The notes under the pieces: generated by a model | The model's database searches: none | What the model was told of the DNA's origin: nothing | What the model saw: the letters and a program-made list of their open reading frames with translations, nothing else | Translations under genes and position numbers: made by a program | Part shown: positions 4,356 to 62,906 of the stretch, piece by piece | How the letters are laid out: every line of letters starts with the position of its first letter | Numbering within the stretch: position 1 is the stretch's first letter | Assembly: GCA_035443945.1 (NCBI GenBank) | Contig: DAOMNQ010000004.1 | Location: forward strand, 2,877 to 66,876 | Direction: 5' to 3' | Source: Phycisphaerales bacterium | GTDB lineage: Bacteria > Planctomycetota > Phycisphaerae > Phycisphaerales > UBA1924 | Length of the DNA: 64,000 bases

Positions 4356-5477
4356 ATGTCCCAGACTTCTGAGAAAACCCCGCGCGCACACACGAAGGGC
4401 GGCCGTCCGTCGGATGCACTTCCCGACAAGACGGTGGTGAAGTGGCTGCACGACATGCAGTTGATCCGGGAGTTCGAGACCCGCACGATGCAGGCCTATC
4501 AGCAGGCCAGGATCGGCGGCTTCTGCCACATCTACTCGGGGCAGGAGGCCTGCGCCGTCGGAACGATCGCGGCTGTCGAGCGTGACGACCCCGTCATCCT
4601 GGCCTACCGCGACCACGGGCACGCCCTCGCACGCGGCATGGACCCGAAGGTCTGCATGGCGGAGATGTTCGGGAAGCAGGCGGGCTGCGCCAAGGGCAAG
4701 GGCGGCTCGATGCACATGTTCGACAAGCCGAACTGGCTGTTCGGCGGCCACGGCATCGTCGGCGCTCAGACGCCTCTGGGGGCGGGCCTCGCTTTCGCCG
4801 CACGCTACGAGTGGGAGGTGCTCGAGACGGGGAAGAAGAAGGTGTGCCTCTGCTACCTGGGTGACGGGGCGATCGACCAGGGGGCGTTCCACGAGGCGCT
4901 CAACCTCGCTTCGCTGTTCGGGCTGCCGGTCATTTACGTGATCGAGAACAACGGTTACTCGATGGGCACGGCCATTCACAGGCACACCGCCAATCACGAC
5001 CGCCTCACCATGCGCGGCGAGTCGTACGGCATCAAGAGTGTGGAGATCGACGGGTTCGACGTGCTGAACGTCTACGACCGGTTCCAGCCGCTCGCCGACG
5101 AGTGCCGAGACCTTCAGCGTCCGGCGTTCGTGGACTTGAAGACCTACCGCTACATGGGCCACTCGATGTCGGACCCGCAGAAGTACCGGACGAAGGAGGA
5201 GGTGGACGAGTGGAAGGAGCGCGATTCGATCGCTGCGCTGGCCTCACACCTGATGCGGAGCAAGGACGACGGGGGGCGGGCGTGCCTGACCGAGGACGAG
5301 TGGAAGGAGATGCAGCGCTCGATCCGCGAGGTTGTGAAGGAGGCGGTGGAGTTCGCGGAGTCGGCGGCGGCGCCGGACATTGAGTCCGAACTCTACAGCG
5401 ACGTGTTCATCAACCCCCTGCCGCAGTCCAGCCCGATCCGTGACTACGTCCACGGGGAGAAGAACCCGCTGCTGTAG
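4356..5477 (+). CDS. pdhA: pyruvate dehydrogenase E1 component, alpha subunit
   Basis: YRDHGHALARGMDPKVCMAEMFGKQAGCAKGKGGSMHMF, GGHGIVGAQTPLGAG and the GDGAIDQGAFHEALNLA TPP-binding motif. Followed by E1-beta and E2 genes. Confidence 0.92.
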   Translation: MSQTSEKTPRAHTKGGRPSDALPDKTVVKWLHDMQLIREFETRTMQAYQQARIGGFCHIYSGQEACAVGTIAAVERDDPVILAYRDHGHALARGMDPKVCMAEMFGKQAGCAKGKGGSMHMFDKPNWLFGGHGIVGAQTPLGAGLAFAARYEWEVLETGKKKVCLCYLGDGAIDQGAFHEALNLASLFGLPVIYVIENNGYSMGTAIHRHTANHDRLTMRGESYGIKSVEIDGFDVLNVYDRFQPLADECRDLQRPAFVDLKTYRYMGHSMSDPQKYRTKEEVDEWKERDSIAALASHLMRSKDDGGRACLTEDEWKEMQRSIREVVKEAVEFAESAAAPDIESELYSDVFINPLPQSSPIRDYVHGEKNPLL

Positions 5478-5513: not shown

Positions 5514-5777
5514 ATGCCGGAGTGGCCGAACTGGTGGTCATGGGATCTGGAGTTCACGCCGCATGTACTCAAACGCATGATCGACCGCCAGTTCAGCGAC
5601 ACGGACTTGCGAGACATGATCGAGTCCACCACAGCCATCAGGATGGCCGAGGAATCAGGCCGATGGATTGCGGAGACAAAGTTCGAAGGCATGGACTGGA
5701 ATGTCGTTCTGGAACCCATCGATGACGAGCGACTCCTCCTTGTGATCACTGCGTATCGGGTGGAGCACACCGACTGA
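5514..5777 (+). CDS. DUF4258 domain protein (toxin-like partner of a putative type II TA pair)
   Basis: 87 aa with FTPHVLKRMIDRQFSDTDLRDMI ... LLLVITAYRVE, the H-x3-RM-x2-R ... VITAYR pattern I associate with DUF4258. GAGG lies 8 nt upstream of the ATG. Visibly lower GC than its neighbours. Confidence 0.7.
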   Translation: MPEWPNWWSWDLEFTPHVLKRMIDRQFSDTDLRDMIESTTAIRMAEESGRWIAETKFEGMDWNVVLEPIDDERLLLVITAYRVEHTD

Positions 5778-5786
5778 GGGCCGACA

Positions 5787-6053
5787 ATGAAGGCTAGATA
5801 CCTTGAAATCACGTTCCGGAAAGGGAAACCGATCGCGGCGTACTTCTATCTCCCACGAATGGAGGGCGACCGCAGCGCCAGGACAACCTCGCTCGGTGAT
5901 GGCCTCCTCGCGGACTTCAGCGCCGACGGACGGCCAATCGGCATCGAGATCACGTCTCCGTCCAGCACAACCGTTGAGACATTGAACCGGGCGCTCGCGG
6001 CCCTAAGCCAATCACCCGTCAGCGGTGCCGAGATCGCCCCACTGGCCGCCTGA
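5787..6053 (+). CDS. DUF2283 domain protein (antitoxin-like partner)
   Basis: 88 aa with MKARYLEITFRKGKPIAAYFYL ... LLADFSADGRPIGIEITSPS, the typical DUF2283 core. It starts 10 nt after the DUF4258 stop, with GAGGG 7 nt upstream. Confidence 0.7.
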   Translation: MKARYLEITFRKGKPIAAYFYLPRMEGDRSARTTSLGDGLLADFSADGRPIGIEITSPSSTTVETLNRALAALSQSPVSGAEIAPLAA

Positions 6054-6273
6054 ACCGCCCTGGGCGGCGAGTCCCCGAGGGGTAGATGGGTTTCTTGAAC
6101 GAAGGCCGAAGCGTCGGAACGCACCGCGAAGTAGATACCCACGTGAGCCTGATCCGATTGCCCGATGTACCCCACGGCCGTGAGGCCCTCAACGACCTGT
6201 TGATCCGCATCCGGAAGTGTGACTGGAAGCCCGTACCTTCGTGTGCTGTTCTCTTGACCTCGGAGCGTCCCGC

Positions 6274-7362
6274 ATGACCACCGCCACCGCACCCCTTCCC
6301 CCCAGCGCACGCCTTGTCGAGCATCCCGCGCTGCCCGGCGGGTTCGCCGTGCCGGACTTTGACGCGGAACTCCCGGCGCGAGAGGGCGACCGCGTCATCC
6401 AGTTCCGCGAGGCCCTGCGCGAGGCCATGTCGGAAGAGATGCGCCGCGATCCTCGCGTCTTCCTCATGGGCGAGGAGGTCGCGGAGTACAACGGCGCGTA
6501 CAAGGTTTCCCAGGGCATGCTGGACGAGTTCGGCCCGAAGCGCATCATCGACACGCCCATCTCCGAGAACGGGTTCGCGGGCCTGGGCATCGCCGCCGCC
6601 ATGTACGGTCTGCGCCCCATTATCGAGTTCATGTCGTGGTCCTTCAGCCTTGTGGCCGCGGACCAGATTCTGAACAACGCCCCGAAGATGCTGTACATGT
6701 CCGGCGGCCAATGGGGCTGCCCGGTCGTGTTTCGGGGCAACAACGGGGCGGGAGGGCAGCTCGGCTCGACCCATTCCTGGTGCGTCGAGGGCCTGTATGC
6801 CAACGTGCCGGGGATGAAGATCGCTGTCCCCAGCAACCCGTACGATGCCAAGGGGATGCTCAAGACCGCGATCCTCGACCCCGATCCGGTCTTCTTCCTT
6901 GAGTCGGAGCGTATGCTCGGGGACAAGGCGCACGTGCCGGAGGAGGAGTACTACATCCCGTTCGGCCGCGCCCGACTGGCCCGCGAGGGCGACGCCTGCA
7001 CGCTCGTCTCATTCGGGCGGCCGGTGAACTTCTGCCTTGAGGCCGCTGAGACGCTCGCCGCCGAGGGCGTCGAGTGCGACGTGCTCGACATGCGGACTGT
7101 CCGGCCGCTCGACCTTGAGTCCGTCGTCCGCAGCCTGCGCAGGACGAACCGGGTCGTCGTGGTGGACCAGTCGTGGCCCTTCGGCGGCGTGGCGAGCGAG
7201 GTCATCGCCCAGATCACGGAGAAGGCGTTCGACTGGCTCGATGCTCCCCCCGCCCGGGTGAACACCGACGACGTGCCGACGCCGTACGCGAAGAGCATGG
7301 AGGCGGCGTACCTGCCGAACGCGGAGAAGATTGCGGCGGCGGTAAAGAGGACACTGGCGTGA
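6274..7362 (+). CDS. pdhB: pyruvate dehydrogenase E1 component, beta subunit
   Basis: VIQFREALREAMSEEMRRDPRVFLMGEEVAEYNGAYKVSQGMLDEFGPKRIIDTPISENGFAGLGIAAAMYGLRPIIEFM, the classical E1-beta sequence. The start is uncertain: in-frame candidates are 6241, ATG 6274 and GTG 6349. Confidence 0.9.
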   Translation: MTTATAPLPPSARLVEHPALPGGFAVPDFDAELPAREGDRVIQFREALREAMSEEMRRDPRVFLMGEEVAEYNGAYKVSQGMLDEFGPKRIIDTPISENGFAGLGIAAAMYGLRPIIEFMSWSFSLVAADQILNNAPKMLYMSGGQWGCPVVFRGNNGAGGQLGSTHSWCVEGLYANVPGMKIAVPSNPYDAKGMLKTAILDPDPVFFLESERMLGDKAHVPEEEYYIPFGRARLAREGDACTLVSFGRPVNFCLEAAETLAAEGVECDVLDMRTVRPLDLESVVRSLRRTNRVVVVDQSWPFGGVASEVIAQITEKAFDWLDAPPARVNTDDVPTPYAKSMEAAYLPNAEKIAAAVKRTLA

Positions 7363-7796
7363 CTCATAGAGCAGCAGAGCAGCAGAGCGGAGAAGCAGCA
7401 GAGGCGTGCCGGGGCGCACCTGTCGCCAGGCGGTCGCGGCTCGATCCCGCCCTCATCGCCCGTGTTGAGGCCTTCTCGCATCGCGTCGCGGACGTCGCCG
7501 CGGCCCTCGATCATGACAGGCGACCTCGCCGGATCATCGACCAGGTGCTCGCCTCCGGCACATCCGTCGCTGCGAACGTATTTGAAGCGGACGAAGCCCT
7601 CAGCCGTGCCGACTTCTGCAAGACCCTTGGCATCGCCGTGAAGGAACTAAGCGAAACCCGTTACTGGATCAGGTTCACTGGCGCACGCGGCTGGATTGTC
7701 CCTGAACGGCTGGTCGGACTGGAAGACGAGTCCACCCGGTTGGGGCGTATCCTTGGGGCGATGAGCGCCCGCGTGCGCCGCAAGGACCGCACCTGA
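7359..7796 (+). CDS. four-helix-bundle protein (23S rRNA intervening-sequence protein family, TIGR02436/PF05635-like)
   Basis: IIDQVLASGTSVAANVFEADEALSRADFCKTLGIAVKELSETRYWIRF matches the family core (Q.L.S.TS..AN..EA....S..DF..K..IA.KE..ET.YW). The only canonical in-frame start after pdhB is GTG 7359, which overlaps the pdhB stop (GTGA). Confidence 0.7.
   Translation: MTHRAAEQQSGEAAEACRGAPVARRSRLDPALIARVEAFSHRVADVAAALDHDRRPRRIIDQVLASGTSVAANVFEADEALSRADFCKTLGIAVKELSETRYWIRFTGARGWIVPERLVGLEDESTRLGRILGAMSARVRRKDRT
7366..7405. repeat. 5' arm of inverted repeat: five tandem octamers, consensus GCAGAGCA
   Basis: Read directly from the sequence: ATAGAGCA GCAGAGCA GCAGAGCG GAGAAGCA GCAGAGGC. Confidence 0.85.
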
Positions 7797-7813
7797 ACCG
7801 GATTCGGCTCCAC

Positions 7814-7854
7814 CATCTGCTGCTCTGCTGCTTTGCTGATCTGCTGCTCTGAGG
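7814..7854. repeat. 3' arm of inverted repeat: five tandem octamers, consensus GCTCTGCT (complement of the 5' arm)
   Basis: Read directly from the sequence: CATCTGCT GCTCTGCT GCTTTGCT GATCTGCT GCTCTGAG G. Aligned by hand against the 5' arm, about 30 of 37 positions are complementary, with the outermost positions pairing. The arm ends 8 nt before the pdhC ATG. Confidence 0.85.
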
Positions 7855-7862
7855 CCCCTCCC

Positions 7863-9230
7863 ATGCCGATCGAGATCACCATGCCCCGTTTGTCGGACAC
7901 GATGGAGCAGGGCACCGTTGTGAAGTGGTACGTGAAGGAGGGCGACGCGGTCTCCTCCGGTGACGTGATCGCGGACATCGAGACCGACAAGGCCACGATG
8001 GAACTGCAGTCCTTCGACGAGGGCACGATCGCAAGGCTCTCGGTGGACGAAGGCAAGGCCGTCGCCGTCGGGACGGTCATCGCCTTGCTGGCGGGCGAGG
8101 GCGAGGATGCCGCGGCCGTCAAGGGGGACGAGAGTACAACCTCGAGCGCGAACGCTCGATCCTCCAAGTCCGCCGGTGCCGACGGTGAGCCTCCGTCGAG
8201 TGAAGGGTCGAAACGGGCCACCGCGACCGCGACCTCGGCCCCCGACTCGTCCCGCACCGATCGCAACGGCACCCGCGTCTTCGCCTCTCCGCTCGCCCGG
8301 AAGATCGCCGAGGAGCGCGGGGTGGACCTCGCGTCGATCGAAGGCACGGGGCCATCCGGGCGCATCACGCGCAAGGACGTTGAGGCTGCCACCCCGGCGG
8401 CGGCTCCCCGCCGTCCTGCCGCGGATGCTCAGGCCGAGCGGATGGTCGCGGCGAGGGTGCCTTCGGCGCCGCTCCCGGAACTCGCCGCGGCCCGTCTCGA
8501 GGACCGCACCGTCACGCTCTCGAACATGCGGGCCACGATCGCCCGCCGGCTTGTCGAGAGCAAGACGACCGTCCCCCACTACCAGGTCACGGTGAGCGCG
8601 CGCATGGATGCGTTGCTGTCGCTGCGCGAGCAACTCAACGAGCAACTGGAGCCGCAGGGCGTGAAACTGAGCGTGAACGACTTCCTCGTCCGCGCCTGCG
8701 CCCTCGCGATGCACCAGCACCCGTTCGTGAACGCCTCGTGGGTCGAGGCGAAGGGGGGCGATGCACCCGCGATCCGTCTGCATGGGCGTGTGAACGTCGG
8801 GGTCGCGATCGCGCTGCCGGCCGAGAGGGGGGGCGGCCTCGTCGTCGGTGTCATCCGCGACGCCGACCGAGTGGGTCTGCGCCAGATTTCCGACGAGACC
8901 CGCCGCCTGGCCTCCAAGGCGCGCGAGAAGGGTCTGAGCGTCGAGGAGATGAGCGACTCGACGTTCACCATTTCGAATCTGGGCATGTTCGGTGTGGATC
9001 ACTTCACGGCGATCATCAACCCACCGAACGCCGCCATCCTGGCCGTCGGACGCGCGATCGAACGCCCGGCCATCGAGCAGGACGATGACGGCGAGGCCCG
9101 CATCTCCGTGGTCCGTGAGATGGCCATGACGATGTCCAGCGACCATCGCATCATCGACGGCGCGATGGCGGCCCAGTATCTCGGCACGGTCAAGCAGATG
9201 CTCGAGCGCCCGGCCTCGCTGCTGGTCTGA
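7863..9230 (+). CDS. pdhC: dihydrolipoamide acetyltransferase (pyruvate dehydrogenase E2)
   Basis: Lipoyl domain MPIEITMPRLSDTMEQGTVVKWYVKEGDAVSSGDVIADIETDKATMEL. Subunit-binding domain ASPLARKIAEERGVDLASIEGTGPSGRITRKDV. Catalytic SSDHRIIDGAMAAQYL. I start at ATG 7863 rather than the track's 7833. Confidence 0.92.
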   Translation: MPIEITMPRLSDTMEQGTVVKWYVKEGDAVSSGDVIADIETDKATMELQSFDEGTIARLSVDEGKAVAVGTVIALLAGEGEDAAAVKGDESTTSSANARSSKSAGADGEPPSSEGSKRATATATSAPDSSRTDRNGTRVFASPLARKIAEERGVDLASIEGTGPSGRITRKDVEAATPAAAPRRPAADAQAERMVAARVPSAPLPELAAARLEDRTVTLSNMRATIARRLVESKTTVPHYQVTVSARMDALLSLREQLNEQLEPQGVKLSVNDFLVRACALAMHQHPFVNASWVEAKGGDAPAIRLHGRVNVGVAIALPAERGGGLVVGVIRDADRVGLRQISDETRRLASKAREKGLSVEEMSDSTFTISNLGMFGVDHFTAIINPPNAAILAVGRAIERPAIEQDDDGEARISVVREMAMTMSSDHRIIDGAMAAQYLGTVKQMLERPASLLV

Positions 9231-28208: not shown

Positions 28209-30185
28209 ATGCCACCCGAGGCAACAGCCATCAAGGGCGTGGAAGGCGGCGTCTCTGCTCCGAGGGCTGCCGCGCCGACCTGGCCTTGGACGCCGCGCGT
28301 GGAACTGTGGGCGTCGATCGTGGCCGGGATGCTGCTGGGCGCGGCCGTGGGCGGTGAGCACCTCGCCGGCTTTGCGGATGCCGTGGTCCTGGCGTGGATG
28401 AGCCTCGCGATTGGAATGGTCTACGGCGTGCGGGCGGCGATGATCGCGCTCTCCGATCGGCGTGTGGACATCGACGTGCTCATGGTGCTCGGGGCGGGGC
28501 TGGCAGCGGGCATCGGCCACCCCGAGGAAGGGGCGCTGCTGCTCTTCCTGTTCGTGCTCGCCGGCGCGCTGGAAAAACTGGCCATGCAGCGCACTCGGCG
28601 TGAGATCGAGGCGCTTCACGCGCTCATGCCGACCGAAGCCCTCGTGTGGCGCGACGGCGCATGGCAGGCGTGCGAGCCGGAGGCACTCCGGGCGGGCGAT
28701 CGTGTTCGTGTACGGCCCGGCGACCGCGTGCCTGCCGACGCTCGCATCGTCGAGGGGTCGTCGGCTGTCGATGAATCGCTGCTCACCGGCGAGAGCGTGC
28801 CCCGCTCGGTCGGCGTGGGCGATGAGGTGTTCACCGGAACGATCAACGGCGAGGGCGTGCTGGTCGCCGAGGTTGAGCGACCGGTCTCCGAGTCGAGCCT
28901 GCGCCGCGTGCTGGAACTGGTCACCGTCGCCCGCGAGCAGCGCGAGCCGCTCCAGCGGGCGATCGATCGCATCGGACAGCCGTACACCCTCGGCGTCATC
29001 ACGTCGAGCCTTGCCGTTTTCGTGGTGTGGTGGCTCGGCTTCGGCGATGAGCCTGCCCGCGCCGCCTACGTCGCCATCACGCTGCTCATCGTGGCGTCGC
29101 CCTGCGCGCTCGTGATCTCGACGCCGACCGCCACGCTCGCGGCGATCGCACGCGGCGCGCGGGCAGGGGTGCTCTTCAAGGGAGGAGAGTCGATCGATCG
29201 GCTGAGCCGCACGGGTGCGGTCTGCTTCGACAAGACTGGTACACTGACGCGTGGGCGCCCCACGGTGACCGAGGTCATCACCCTCGACGGGTTGGACCAC
29301 GAGAGCGCCCTCGGATCAGCCGCGGCGCTCGAAGCGGACTCGACCCATCCGACGGCCGCGGCGATCGTGTCCGCGGCACAGGCAGAAGGCATCGCGCTCC
29401 CCCGTGTGGACGAGCCGAGGGCGGTCATCGGGCGCGGCATGACCGGGCAAGTCAACGGGCACGAAGCCCGCGTCGGAAGTCTCGCGCACATGGAGGGCCT
29501 GCTCTCGCCGGGCGACGCGGCGCACGTCCGTTCGATCCTCGACGAGGCGCGAACCGCGGGGATGCTCGGTGTGGTCGTGGCCGTGGGAAGCCGCGCGGCG
29601 GTCATCCTGCTGCGCGACGAGGTTCGGCCGGGCGCCAAGGGATTGGTCGATCGACTTCACGCGCTGGGCATCCGCCCTGTGCGGATGCTCACGGGCGACG
29701 ACCGGATCGTCGCTGAGCGAGTGGCCAACGAACTGGGCCTCGACCGATGGGACGCCTCGCTGCTGCCGGAGGACAAGGTGGCCGCGGTGGAGGAGATGAA
29801 GAGCGAAAGGCGAAGAGGGAAGAGCGAACAAGCCGTTGCGGTCATCGGGGACGGCGTGAACGACGCCCCCGCGCTCGCCGCCGCCGACGTATCGATCGCC
29901 ATCGGGTCGATCGGCTCGGACGCGGCGATGGAATCGGCGGACATCGTGCTCCTGGGCGAGGACCTCGAACGGGTGCCCTGGGCGATCCGCCTGGCGCAGC
30001 GCACGCGGGCGACCGTGAAGGCGAACATCGCGTTCGCGCTCTCCGTCATTGTGGTCATGGGCCTGGTCACGCTGATCGGTTCCCGAACCGGACTCCAGGT
30101 TCCCCTCTCGGTTGGCGTCCTCGCCCACGAGGGCGGCACCCTGCTCGTCGTCCTCAACTCGCTCAGGCTGCTCTGGTTCCGGTGA
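28209..30185 (+). CDS. heavy-metal P1B-type ATPase, P1B-4-like (SPC / HEGGT; Co/Zn-type), no N-terminal metal-binding domain
   Basis: TGES, IVASPCALVISTP (SPC in the TM metal site), DKTGTLT, STHPTA, GDGVNDAPALAAADVSIAIG and HEGGTLLVVLNSL in the last TM. The start is moved to ATG 28209 (the track uses TTG 28164). Confidence 0.85.
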   Translation: MPPEATAIKGVEGGVSAPRAAAPTWPWTPRVELWASIVAGMLLGAAVGGEHLAGFADAVVLAWMSLAIGMVYGVRAAMIALSDRRVDIDVLMVLGAGLAAGIGHPEEGALLLFLFVLAGALEKLAMQRTRREIEALHALMPTEALVWRDGAWQACEPEALRAGDRVRVRPGDRVPADARIVEGSSAVDESLLTGESVPRSVGVGDEVFTGTINGEGVLVAEVERPVSESSLRRVLELVTVAREQREPLQRAIDRIGQPYTLGVITSSLAVFVVWWLGFGDEPARAAYVAITLLIVASPCALVISTPTATLAAIARGARAGVLFKGGESIDRLSRTGAVCFDKTGTLTRGRPTVTEVITLDGLDHESALGSAAALEADSTHPTAAAIVSAAQAEGIALPRVDEPRAVIGRGMTGQVNGHEARVGSLAHMEGLLSPGDAAHVRSILDEARTAGMLGVVVAVGSRAAVILLRDEVRPGAKGLVDRLHALGIRPVRMLTGDDRIVAERVANELGLDRWDASLLPEDKVAAVEEMKSERRRGKSEQAVAVIGDGVNDAPALAAADVSIAIGSIGSDAAMESADIVLLGEDLERVPWAIRLAQRTRATVKANIAFALSVIVVMGLVTLIGSRTGLQVPLSVGVLAHEGGTLLVVLNSLRLLWFR

Positions 30186-57263: not shown

Positions 57264-59552
57264 ATGACCGCGCCCGCCGGCTTCGAACTCGTCAGCGATT
57301 TCGCGCCGACGGGCGATCAGCCCGGCGCGATCGAGGGCGTCTGCCGCGACCTCCGCGCCGGCTCGCGCCACGTCTGCCTGCTCGGCGCGACCGGCACCGG
57401 CAAGACCTTCACCATGGCGAACGTCATCGCTGCGCTTCAACGACCCACGCTCATCATCAGCCACAACAAGACCCTCGCGGCGCAGTTGTACGAGGAACTG
57501 CGCCAGTTTTTCCCCCGCAACAGCGTAAACTATTTCGTCTCGTACTACGACTTCTACCAGCCCGAGGCCTACATCCCCGCCCGCGACATCTACATCGAGA
57601 AGGACGCCAGCCGCAACGACGACCTCGACATGCTGCGCCTGGCCGCCACCAGCAGCATCCTCAGCCGGCGCGACACCATCGTCGTCGCGTCGGTCTCCTG
57701 CATCTTCGGCCTTGGGTCGCCCGAGGCGTACGCGCAGCGGGTGCTGACGATCACCCGCGGCAGCCGCATCAACCGGCGCGACTTCTTCCTCGCCCTCAAC
57801 GCCATGCAGTACCAGCGCGTCGACGTCGAGTTCAAACGCGGCTCGTACCGCGTCCGAGGCGACGCCGTCGAGGTCTGGCCCGCCTACGAGCGCTTCGCCG
57901 TCCGCGTCGAACTCTTCGGCGACGAGATCGACCGCGTGGACCTGATCGACCCGACCGGCGGCGAACTGCTCGCCCAGGAGCGGCAGTTCTTCCTGTATCC
58001 CGCCGTTCACTATGTGATGCCCGAGGAGGAGATCAAGCCCATCCTCGACTCGATCCGGGCCGACCTCGACGACCGCGTGCTCGAACTGCGTTCGCAGGGC
58101 AGACTCCTCGAAGCCCAGCGCCTGCTCGCCCGCACCAAGTACGACCTCGAGATGATCGAGGAGGTCGGCTATTGCTCCGGCATCGAGAACTACTCCCGCT
58201 ACTTCGACGGCCGCGCCCCCGGCGAGCGCCCGTTCACGCTGCTCGACTACTTCGAGCGGGCACCGCGGCGGGATGGAGAGTGGCGAAGTGGCAAAGCGGC
58301 AGAGTGGCAAAGCGATACCGCGAACATCGCCGCCGAGCCCCACTCCGCCACTCTGCCACCCTGCCACTCTGCCACTTCTGCTTCAAGCGACTGGCTCCTC
58401 ATCATCGACGAATCGCACGTTACCGTCCCGCAGGTGCGGGCGATGTTCAATGGCGACCGCGCCCGCAAGGAAGTGCTCGTCGAGCACGGTTTCCGCCTTC
58501 CCGCCGCCCTCGACAACCGTCCGCTGCGGTTCGAGGAGTTCGAGTCGATGATTCCCCAGGTCGTGTTCGTCAGCGCGACGCCGGGGCCGTACGAACTCGG
58601 CCTGACCGGCGGCGCGGTGCACGAGCAGGTCATCCGCCCGACCGGCCTGCTCGACCCCGAGATCGAGGTCCGCCCCGCCTCGAACCAGGTGCAGGACCTG
58701 CTCGGACGCTGCCGCGAGCGTGCCGCCTCGGGGGAGCGTGTGCTCATCACCGCCCTCACCAAGCGCCTCTGCGAGGACCTCACGGGCTACCTCGACCAGC
58801 AGGGCCTGCGCGTGCGCTACCTGCACAGCGAGATCGACACGCTCGAGCGTGTGGGCATCCTCACCGACCTGCGGCTGGGCGAGTTCGACGTGCTCGTCGG
58901 CGTGAACCTGCTGCGCGAGGGCTTGGACCTGCCCGAGGTCTCGCTCGTGTGCATCCTTGACGCCGACAAGGAGGGCTTCCTCCGCTCAGCCACGAGCCTC
59001 ATCCAGCAGATGGGCCGCGCCGCCCGCAACGTGAACGCGAAGGTCGTTATGTACGCCGACTCCGTTACACCCGCCATGCAGGCCGCCATCGACGAGACCG
59101 AACGCCGCCGCGCCAGGCAGATCGCCTTCAACCGCGAACACGGCGTCACTCCGACCACCATCCGCAAGGCCATCCGCCGCGGGCTGGAGAGCGAACTCAA
59201 GGCGAGGCGCACGGCCCGCGAGGCCGCCCTCACCAGCGAGCGGCCCCTCGACGCCGCCACGCTGCTCGCCGAGATCGAAGGCGAGATGCGCGAAGCGGCC
59301 GAGTCGCTGAACTTCGAGCGCGCCGCCGAACTGCGCGACCAGGCCGCCACCGTGCGACGACTCATCGAGGAGCACGGCGGGCACGCCCCGGGACTGCCGA
59401 CCGGCGACGGACCGGACGAACCGCTTCTGCTCCGACGCGCCGAGGTCGAGGAAGCCCTGCGGGCGAAGGGCGGCACGCGACGGCGCAAGCCCGGCATGGC
59501 CGGCGTGCACCCGCGCGCGAAGGAACGCCGCACGCGCCGCAAGCCCCGCTGA
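57264..59552 (+). CDS. uvrB: excinuclease ABC subunit B (carrying a 44-codon in-frame insertion)
   Basis: FELVSDFAPTGDQPGAI, GATGTGKTFTMANVI, FVSYYDFYQPEAYIP, IIDESHVTVPQ, GFRLPAALDNRPL, DADKEGFLRS and the UVR domain LNFERAAELRDQ. Compared with my memory of E. coli UvrB (FDYLPADGLLVVDESH), there is extra sequence between YFE and DWLLIIDESH. Confidence 0.93.
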   Translation: MTAPAGFELVSDFAPTGDQPGAIEGVCRDLRAGSRHVCLLGATGTGKTFTMANVIAALQRPTLIISHNKTLAAQLYEELRQFFPRNSVNYFVSYYDFYQPEAYIPARDIYIEKDASRNDDLDMLRLAATSSILSRRDTIVVASVSCIFGLGSPEAYAQRVLTITRGSRINRRDFFLALNAMQYQRVDVEFKRGSYRVRGDAVEVWPAYERFAVRVELFGDEIDRVDLIDPTGGELLAQERQFFLYPAVHYVMPEEEIKPILDSIRADLDDRVLELRSQGRLLEAQRLLARTKYDLEMIEEVGYCSGIENYSRYFDGRAPGERPFTLLDYFERAPRRDGEWRSGKAAEWQSDTANIAAEPHSATLPPCHSATSASSDWLLIIDESHVTVPQVRAMFNGDRARKEVLVEHGFRLPAALDNRPLRFEEFESMIPQVVFVSATPGPYELGLTGGAVHEQVIRPTGLLDPEIEVRPASNQVQDLLGRCRERAASGERVLITALTKRLCEDLTGYLDQQGLRVRYLHSEIDTLERVGILTDLRLGEFDVLVGVNLLREGLDLPEVSLVCILDADKEGFLRSATSLIQQMGRAARNVNAKVVMYADSVTPAMQAAIDETERRRARQIAFNREHGVTPTTIRKAIRRGLESELKARRTAREAALTSERPLDAATLLAEIEGEMREAAESLNFERAAELRDQAATVRRLIEEHGGHAPGLPTGDGPDEPLLLRRAEVEEALRAKGGTRRRKPGMAGVHPRAKERRTRRKPR
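58275..58381. repeat. palindromic element inside uvrB: five GCAGAGTG-type octamers, 26-nt loop, five complementary CACTCTGC-type octamers
   Basis: 5' arm 58275-58314: GGAGAGTG GCGAAGTG GCAAAGCG GCAGAGTG GCAAAGCG. Loop ATACCGCGAACATCGCCGCCGAGCCC. 3' arm 58341-58381: CACTCCGC CACTCTGC CACCCTGC CACTCTGC CACTTCTGC. About 30 of 40 positions are complementary by hand alignment. Confidence 0.85.

Positions 59553-59792: not shown

Positions 59793-62906
<3,114 letters not shown>

Follow-up and report, generated by a model that had tools for sequence, protein, structure and literature searches.

A stretch of 64,000 nucleotides from a Phycisphaerales bacterium (assembly GCA_035443945.1, contig DAOMNQ010000004.1, positions 2,877 to 66,876 of the forward strand; hereafter "the window", whose first letter is position 1 for the coordinates given below) contains, at 7359-7854, a small cassette that fits tightly between pdhB and pdhC, which are genes of the same orientation in a highly expressed operon. 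The cassette is composed of one gene for a four-helix-bundle protein, of the S23p / 23S_rRNA_IVP / Avd-like type, located inside two complementary arrays, each made of about five units of 7-8 nucleotides (nt). Members of the protein family generally show this gene-plus-arrays architecture, whatever the phylum, one instance being an intervening sequence (IVS) found in helix 45 of a 23S rRNA, and the cassette is homologous to the rRNA IVSs that carry an open reading frame (ORF). The explanation that we favour, with some reserve, is that of a resident IVS-type selfish cassette, transcribed together with its host operon.

The features of the locus all lie on the forward strand. The 5' arm, at 7366-7405, consists of five tandem octamers, ATAGAGCA GCAGAGCA GCAGAGCG GAGAAGCA GCAGAGGC, and the 3' arm, at 7814-7854, of five tandem octamers complementary to them. 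An inverted-repeat search delimited the pairing cores, 7368-7402 and 7816-7850, as arms of 35 nt with 83% complementarity, and ranked this pair first among the 32 inverted repeats of the window whose arms are no more than 2.5 kb apart; in a gapped alignment of the two arms, 31 positions out of 36 match. Each arm is described by Tandem Repeats Finder (TRF) as a period-8 array of 4.5 copies, and by a count of chained core motifs as 5 units. The pattern GCAGAGNNGCAGAGNNGCAGAG, with up to 3 mismatches allowed, finds 10 matches against 0.12 expected, a number reached by none of 100 shuffles. When the RNA of 7340-7880 is folded, the long-range helix between the arms is present in both the minimum free energy (MFE) and the centroid structure (-251.9 kcal/mol, z -3.7). 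Two mutually complementary arms of five octamers had been proposed in an earlier note, made by eye from the letters of the window, together with a folding check; both the arms and the long-range helix are borne out. The check for further octamer arrays, suggested in the same place, was also positive within the window: a second pair is present in uvrB, as described below.

The enclosed gene starts where pdhB ends: the pdhB stop codon (TGA, 7360-7362) overlaps a GTG at 7359, which opens a frame of 145 codons ending at 7796. This reading of the frame, already given in the earlier note, holds, as does its assignment to the four-helix-bundle / 23S-IVS-protein family, since the product matches both PF05635 (E 9e-14, residues 38-133, 52 bits against a cut-off of 33.8) and TIGR02436 (E 3.5e-17, 62.6 bits against a cut-off of 24). 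An identical product of 145 aa is annotated by NCBI in a Phycisphaerales metagenome-assembled genome (MAG; P0001); one gene caller returned only an 83-aa fragment of the ORF. Family members are about 120 aa long and start with MGRL. At this position of the alignment the window copy reads RSRL, and no start codon is found between 7359 and the bundle: the first 27 codons (7359-7439, GTG included), which span the whole 5' arm, are therefore an add-on. As judged from the alignment, this N-terminal extension appears to be specific to the lineage and to replace a lost canonical ATG.

The two parts of the frame behave differently when compared with an ortholog that is 87% identical (locus L002). The core, codons 28-145 (7440-7796, stop codon included), shows a ratio of nonsynonymous to synonymous substitution rates (dN/dS) of 0.13, with dS 0.41, and the extension a ratio of 0.91, with dS 0.21. 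These values indicate that the four-helix-bundle protein is under purifying selection, and that the extension is unconstrained as a protein and constrained as a nucleotide sequence. A core ratio of 0.13 implies a functional protein, whose translation must begin upstream, coupling to pdhB being the simplest way. The AlphaFold model of the product features four helices (30-52, 57-78, 83-109 and 115-142) with a pLDDT of 91.2; at the N-terminus, pLDDT is about 61-64 for residues 1-20, climbing to about 80 for residues 21-30. The best structural match found by Foldseek is 2RLD (BT_0352; TM 0.92, rmsd 1.1), followed by 2GSC (Xcc0516; TM 0.84) and then by Avd (4DWL), the accessory protein of diversity-generating retroelements (DGRs), and by structures of DGR ribonucleoproteins, including 8UBE. 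The homologs 2RLD (5 chains), 2GSC and Avd 4DWL are pentamers; a homopentameric ring is accordingly putative for the window protein, whose own model is a monomer.

The upstream host gene, pdhB (6241-7362), is identified by the ORF list and by its Transket_pyr and Transketolase_C domains as E1 beta, and the downstream one, pdhC (7863-9230), by its Biotin_lipoyl, E3_binding and 2-oxoacid_dh domains as E2. The pdhC ATG, at 7863, is located 8 nt past the 3' arm, and the outer edge of this arm provides, as had been noted earlier, the sole Shine-Dalgarno-like motif in the gap before it (GAGG, 7851-7854). In the fold of 7340-7880, the base of the arm-arm helix also sequesters this GAGG. In the ortholog locus L002 (P0002, GCA_023384195.1) the cassette is again found between pdhB and pdhC, with the GTGA overlap and arrays identical in design, the 3' arm being one octamer shorter than in the window copy. 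No rRNA was detected by Rfam within the 64-kb window, nor was a second four-helix-bundle gene found in it.

The occurrence of the same design elsewhere was evaluated on loci picked by protein similarity, many of which come from MAGs or metagenome contigs. The Phycisphaerales set includes 80 loci encoding relatives, nearly all in Phycisphaerales MAGs; the Bacteroidota-like set, obtained by a metagenome scan with the 2RLD sequence, includes 80 loci, 64 of them scorable. In the Phycisphaerales set, arms were called by aligning the upstream flank to the reverse complement of the downstream flank, with 30 as the lowest Smith-Waterman score accepted. The limits of the arms are uncertain by a few nt, and neighbour-gene calls in GC-rich DNA are approximate. 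A clear inverted pair of arrays with units of 7 or 8 nt is present in 68 of the 80 Phycisphaerales loci. Heptamer arrays (units AATTGAC, AATTGAT, AATGGAT, AATTGAA) bracket the gene in 58 of the 64 Bacteroidota-like loci, among which are loci 100% identical to BT_0352. Two relatives with 37% identity, located between the genes for an ABC ATPase and a permease, feature (AATGACCA)x5 upstream and (TGGTCATT)x4-5 downstream.

The design is also shown by completely sequenced plasmids of cultured isolates: Nostoc punctiforme PCC 73102 plasmid pNPUN01 (NC_010631.1, 162595-163050), with arm unit (A/G)GTCGGA, a plasmid of Gloeocapsa PCC 7428 (NC_019759.1, 12242-12610), with arm unit GATTTTA, and Treponema saccharophilum pTS1, with arm units GGAAAGTG / GGAGAGCG; a Ca. 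Chlorohelix plasmid carries GATTTTA units too. In one locus of the Bacteroidota-like set (L133) the cassette sits in a hairpin loop at positions 1206-1226, approximately, of the large-subunit rRNA model, corresponding to 23S helix 45, the classical IVS site. Altogether, the gene with its inverted arrays recurs in about 130 other loci, and the question, raised by the earlier note, of whether paralogs are bracketed likewise is answered positively. A family borne by phages was considered and rejected, close relatives being present in only 2 of 50,697 phage records.

Some loci depart from the common type. In L020 (296-777) and L054 (238-727) a divergent cassette is present, with GGGACGRA octamer arms about 390-440 nt apart; the cargo of L020 matches the four-helix-bundle profile weakly (E 7e-6), and that of L054 gives no match at E 1e-3. 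They may be examples of the same packaging used by a more distantly related protein subfamily. L048 features extra T-rich arrays without a local partner (2198-2245 and 4770-4832), and the array located after E2 is complementary to the 5' arm of the four-helix-bundle cassette upstream of E2, so that an alternative helix of much longer range, enclosing cassette and E2, is possible. In L179 (Ca. Chlorohelix plasmid) and L180 (Gloeocapsa PCC 7428 plasmid), which belong to different phyla and share GATTTTA arms, the cassette lies between a DUF1156 gene and a Swt1-family HEPN gene: apparently, this defence-like three-gene block moved horizontally with the cassette in place.

The arms of a cassette match each other, although the unit sequence differs among cassettes, even inside one genome. 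The mean arm-match score is 46 for cognate arms and 18 for non-cognate ones, and the best partner of an arm is its cognate in 34 of 68 loci. Pairing occurs in register: identity is 0.90 and drops to 0.60-0.64 after a shift by one unit, in 45 out of 45 loci. The long-range helix is part of the MFE structure in 62 of 68 Phycisphaerales and 52 of 58 Bacteroidota-like loci. Arms are about 31-34 nt long; the number of units per arm has a mode of 5 in Phycisphaerales and is 5-6 in the AT-rich set. Period-7 and period-8 arrays do not differ in copy number, 4.4 each (p 0.48), and do differ in length, 31 against 34 nt (p 0.014). The commonest unit in Phycisphaerales is TGGCAAA / CGGCAGA.

Placement is stereotyped as well. 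Median distances are 16 nt from the end of the 5' arm to the ATG and 6 nt from the stop codon to the beginning of the 3' arm; the stop codon of the upstream gene is found within a few nt of the 5' arm, and the ATG of the downstream one about 3-12 nt past the 3' arm. Cassette gene and upstream neighbour point in the same direction in about 71 of 77 Phycisphaerales loci (about 92%) and in 38 of the 44 resolved Bacteroidota-like loci. Host junctions are numerous: the 80 loci form 49 neighbour-gene clusters and include E1beta-E2 (26 loci), E1alpha-E1beta of a paralogous operon, and M50-like-secA. Further host junctions look like sucC-sucD and iscS-iscU, and cmr3-cmr2 is known from the literature (PMC3936711). 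In L021, cassettes are present on both sides of E1beta. Vertical co-inheritance was considered for the E1beta-E2 junction: the identity of the four-helix-bundle proteins is not correlated with that of E2 (rho 0.05) and is weakly correlated with that of E1beta (rho 0.29); the E1beta-E2 clusters mix paralogous 2-oxoacid dehydrogenase operons. Flanking direct repeats of 2 nt or more are missing in 80 of 89 loci, and ordinary DDE-type transposition is disfavoured by this absence of target-site duplications. No transposase or recombinase is present in or next to the examined cassettes, and no polymorphism between filled and empty sites was recovered, though cassettes occupy many distinct junctions.

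Other inserts are found in the same operons. In the window, a DUF4258 (5514-5777) and DUF2283 (5787-6053) gene pair, resembling a toxin-antitoxin module, separates pdhA from pdhB; the matching gap of the L002 operon contains, instead, a small ORF, a MNT-type nucleotidyltransferase and HepT. Taken with the cassette between pdhB and pdhC, both intergenic gaps of the pdh operon thus hold small selfish-looking inserts. At the E1beta-E2 junction of L076 (4100-4745) an unrelated ORF of about 200 codons is present, with no arrays, where L043 has a solitary hairpin: a further sign that operon junctions are insertion hot spots.

Arms are also found without a gene between them. In the window, the cargo-less member is an in-frame insertion of 132 nt (44 codons) in uvrB, at 58254-58385 on the forward strand, documented by TRF, alignment to structures of the Protein Data Bank (PDB), folding and comparison with homologs. 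It contains inverted octamer arrays (units TGGCAAA / CGGCAGA) at 58279-58312 and 58340-58381, about 28 nt apart, and its RNA folds with -74.2 kcal/mol (z -4.25). According to the PDB alignment, UvrB from B. caldotenax has a single residue at the insertion site. The insertion is absent in 16 of 18 UvrB homologs, and the two remaining ones, close relatives, carry at this site an unrelated loop of 25-45 aa with no arrays, which makes the insertion lineage-specific. Most of the homologs recovered were fragments, and neither a clean empty site nor a footprint was definable among them. Other cargo-less hairpins occur next to complete cassettes: in L043 a solitary hairpin fills the E1beta-E2 gap and a full cassette the E1alpha-E1beta one, and a solitary hairpin is located just upstream of the Treponema copy.

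Many UvrB matches are only 166-360 aa long, although located on contigs of 0.4-2.8 Mb (e.g. P0099, P0143, P0207), and, when aligned, these short products lose the frame at their C-termini; in the assemblies concerned, frameshifts in uvrB or interruptions of the gene may be common. A few other short arrays are present in the window. TRF reports a period-8 array, TGGCACGG x3.1, at 1348-1373. A purine-rich period-7/8 array (GAAGAGC GAAAGGC GAAGAGG GAAGAGC GAA) is located at 29798-29828, in a P-type ATPase gene, just before the GDGxNDxP motif, with no inverted partner within 1 kb. In uvrA, four tandem heptamers (CAGGACT CAAGACT CAGGACT CAGGACT, 60696-60724), also without an inverted partner, code for a portion of a loop that exceeds its counterpart in the solved structures of UvrA by about 8 aa.

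The proposal of the earlier note, an IVS-style helix-closed cassette residing in an mRNA rather than in rRNA, is supported by the roughly 130 loci described, by the copy in 23S helix 45 and by the match to the IVS of Coxiella. The terminal stem of the latter, 28 bp long, is cut in its middle by RNase III in vitro, the ends having been mapped by rapid amplification of cDNA ends, and the 5' region of this IVS contains three or four tandem GACAGAT heptamers (PMC4990558). The window cassette would have no promoter of its own and would be transcribed by read-through as part of the pdhABC mRNA. The arms would pair in the transcript and, as is the case in rRNA IVSs, shut the ORF off with a helix of about 35 bp; RNase III would probably cut this helix, giving rise to separate pdhAB, four-helix-bundle and pdhC messages and leaving the host operon functional. 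Such a release, with the host halves still translatable, would explain why the cassettes are tolerated in essential operons and in rRNA. In the window lineage, the own ATG having presumably been lost, translation would be coupled to pdhB through the GTGA overlap, and ribosomes proceeding from pdhB across the 5' arm would open the helix, thereby exposing the GAGG of pdhC. On a more speculative level, the arrays might also bind the homopentameric ring formed by the protein of the cassette itself, each protomer taking one unit, much as TRAP does. A pentamer reading the arrays would explain why the number of units, about five, is constant rather than the length of the helix, a feature that a plain helix does not explain.

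Several observations weigh against this interpretation. The demonstrated cases of cleavage by RNase III are rRNA IVSs, such as that of Coxiella; for mRNA-borne cassettes it is a prediction. Among arm mismatches, those of the G:U type are not in excess over those of the A:C type (58 and 46, p 0.28), and most mismatches are transversions. There is, therefore, no signature specific of RNA: the resemblance of the arms could equally be maintained at the DNA level, for example by gene conversion from one arm to the other, and the mismatch data, while not supporting an RNA helix under selection, do not exclude it either. The units vary by lineage (TGACAAT, TGGCAAA, GGTCGGA, GATTTTA, GGAAAGTG), and in some copies the A-rich arm is the 3' one, so that any recognition by a protein would have to co-evolve cassette by cassette. 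2RLD, moreover, is not basic, having an isoelectric point of 6.5 against a median of 9.4 among Phycisphaerales members. A cleavable hairpin in uvrB would be harmful, hence not every copy can be cut efficiently. Mobility, finally, is inferred from the diversity of contexts only, and the cassette has been at the pdhB-pdhC junction since dS was about 0.4. Two simple rules for the arms were tried and dropped: a universal unit core, TGRCA, fits the Bacteroidota, Phycisphaerales, L093/L094 and Coxiella units only, failing in Nostoc (GGTCGGA), Gloeocapsa and Chlorohelix (GATTTTA) and Treponema (the first of the two units given above); the identification of the A-rich arm with the 5' arm fails in the cyanobacterial copies.

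The most serious competing explanation, to which we give a distinctly smaller share of credence, sees the arms as the terminal inverted repeats of a mobile DNA element, with the units as sub-terminal sites for a transposase or recombinase supplied in trans; the RNA helix would be a by-product and the solitary hairpins MITE-like derivatives (miniature inverted-repeat transposable elements). The variety of junctions, with 49 neighbour-gene clusters among 80 loci, the spread over several phyla, plasmids and rRNA, the cargo-less hairpins of L043, of the Treponema copy and, in frame, of uvrB, and the lack of a G:U bias all fit this view. It does not account for the lack of flanking direct repeats in 80 of 89 loci, nor for that of a transposase or recombinase in or beside the cassettes; a single trans-acting enzyme would not recognise the different units found within one genome, and the pdh copy has been stable since dS was about 0.4. 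Co-orientation and flush placement are not expected from random transposition either, though selection could act as a filter. The geometry of the locus, inverted repeats of about 35 bp around a segment of about 450 bp, is also that of known invertons, in which a recombinase flips the segment, here switching the expression of the four-helix-bundle gene or of the downstream host gene. This is very improbable: frequent flipping would produce both orientations, whereas about 92% of Phycisphaerales loci and 38 of the 44 resolved Bacteroidota-like ones have the gene and its upstream neighbour in the same direction, no recombinase gene is nearby, and the design also works inside rRNA, where inversion would be lethal. 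The orientation bias and the rRNA copy contradict it.

A different role for the arrays, that of an RNA or DNA operator in cis, by which the four-helix-bundle protein would regulate its own translation, is an unlikely account, less so than an inverton. In this case binding is putative, the arms would not be a site for RNase III and their complementarity would be secondary. The match between about five units per arm and pentameric homologs, the conservation of copy number and not of length, the location of the 5' arm, ending a median of 16 nt before the ATG and beside the ribosome-binding region, and the binding of an RNA stem-loop by the homolog Avd are in its favour; left unexplained are the near-constant second inverted array after the stop codon, pairing in register at 0.90 identity, and the solitary hairpins with no gene. 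As to a chance or low-complexity resemblance around a decaying pseudogene, the loss of the canonical ATG, the 83-aa annotation and the other short purine-rich 7-8-nt arrays in coding loops of the window could suggest it. It is the least credible of all: the shuffle statistics, the recurrence throughout the family and the core dN/dS of 0.13 exclude it, and the confident four-helix-bundle model also opposes it.

To the resident IVS-type cassette a broader hypothesis may be added, which we hold only tentatively. The IVS-protein genes with their periodic arms might constitute self-recognising RNA-protein modules, in which the ring-shaped pentamer, on the helix-closed transcript, reads the five-unit array specific to its own cassette, each protomer one unit, and thereby controls processing by RNase III, or drives spreading through an RNA intermediate; rRNA IVSs, ORF-less IVS hairpins and insertions of the uvrB type would then be one ancient, pan-bacterial class of selfish elements, specialised in riding inside highly expressed operons without breaking them. 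Such a module would parallel the homolog Avd, which positions RNA for a reverse transcriptase.

The closest known relatives are the ORF-bearing 23S IVSs of Leptospira, Coxiella burnetii and the Xanthomonas/Brucella type, inserted in helix 25 or 45 of 23S rRNA. They share with the window cassette the S23p / PF05635 protein, the terminal inverted repeats and the stem enclosing the ORF; in Coxiella the number of heptamers varies by strain, as that of octamers does between the window and L002. The window copy differs in being located between pdhB and pdhC and not in rRNA, although its relative L133 is in helix 45, and its excision by RNase III is only inferred. The Coxiella ORF, moreover, is decaying and probably untranslated, whereas purifying selection acts on the window protein, whose translation appears to be coupled to pdhB.

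Correia hairpins are substrates of RNase III and alter the expression of neighbouring genes. Like Correia (CREE), ERIC/IRU and MITE-like elements, the cassettes are small inverted-repeat elements between co-transcribed genes, forming long hairpins in mRNA, and the cargo-less ones, in uvrB and at the E1beta-E2 junction of L043, are those most resembling Correia-type elements. Cassettes of the window type, however, show no target-site duplication and have arms made of tandem 7-8-nt units; most of them carry a protein gene, which is under selection in the window copy, only the solitary hairpins being short and non-coding, and their arms, differing within a genome, do not form a homogeneous repeat family. 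The uvrB element recalls the Rickettsia palindromic elements (RPEs), being palindromic, in frame, translated through and located, within an essential and conserved protein, in a surface loop; the two are unrelated in sequence, and RPEs have neither tandem short units nor a cognate protein gene.

The 23S IVS protein family is the parent family of the DGR protein Avd. Avd has the same fold and belongs to a pentameric family (4DWL, 8UBE; PMC10053308); it binds an RNA stem-loop, and in the RNA of DGRs the template is flanked by a long-range duplex. The window gene, at about 20% identity to Avd, neighbours pdhB and pdhC, with no reverse transcriptase and no template or variable repeat. TRAP, which binds 11 GAG/UAG repeats, offers an analogy only: it is a ring-shaped homo-oligomer whose protomers match the repeats in number, as five protomers would match about five units here, but its fold is unrelated, and binding of the arrays by four-helix-bundle proteins is putative. 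Integron cassettes differ in having a single 3' attC instead of two symmetric arms, and no integrase is present among the neighbours of the window copy or of the related loci. The FopS small RNA family of Bacteroides was considered and found unrelated.

IVS elements, their stems, their ORFs and the Coxiella heptamers are already known. The earlier note was not aware of octamer-array arms having been described for these genes; this has to be corrected, since Warrier et al. (2016) noted the Coxiella heptamers, although only as a local, strain-variable feature. This was the only precedent retrieved from the searchable literature by family names and repeat strings. The same searches found no description of periodic inverted arrays as a near-universal attribute of TIGR02436 (five phyla sampled here, plus the Coxiella IVS), of the location of most copies between protein-coding genes rather than in rRNA, or of the cargo-less and in-frame derivatives. 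A survey of the HEPN superfamily does not mention these four-helix-bundle proteins.

To our knowledge, what the IVS proteins do and where IVSs come from are questions that date from the early 1990s and still stand; the only annotation of the family is "four helix bundle protein", and we know of two solved pentameric structures and of no ligand. The stereotyped cassette present in nearly all of the members examined, an array of about five 7-8-nt units, an ORF and an inverted array, provides a candidate nucleic-acid ligand. The arms, the solitary hairpins and in-frame insertions such as that in uvrB are either invisible to gene callers or mis-called by them. The design is present in tractable organisms, such as Bacteroides thetaiotaomicron (BT_0352) and Nostoc punctiforme PCC 73102, and suggests a way to split polycistronic mRNAs without harm to the host. 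The rRNA IVSs become a special case of elements residing between operon genes, such as pdhB-pdhC, sucC-sucD, iscS-iscU, ABC ATPase-permease and cmr3-cmr2, and this habit of occupying operon junctions explains the puzzling "associations" of four-helix-bundle genes with CRISPR and other loci.

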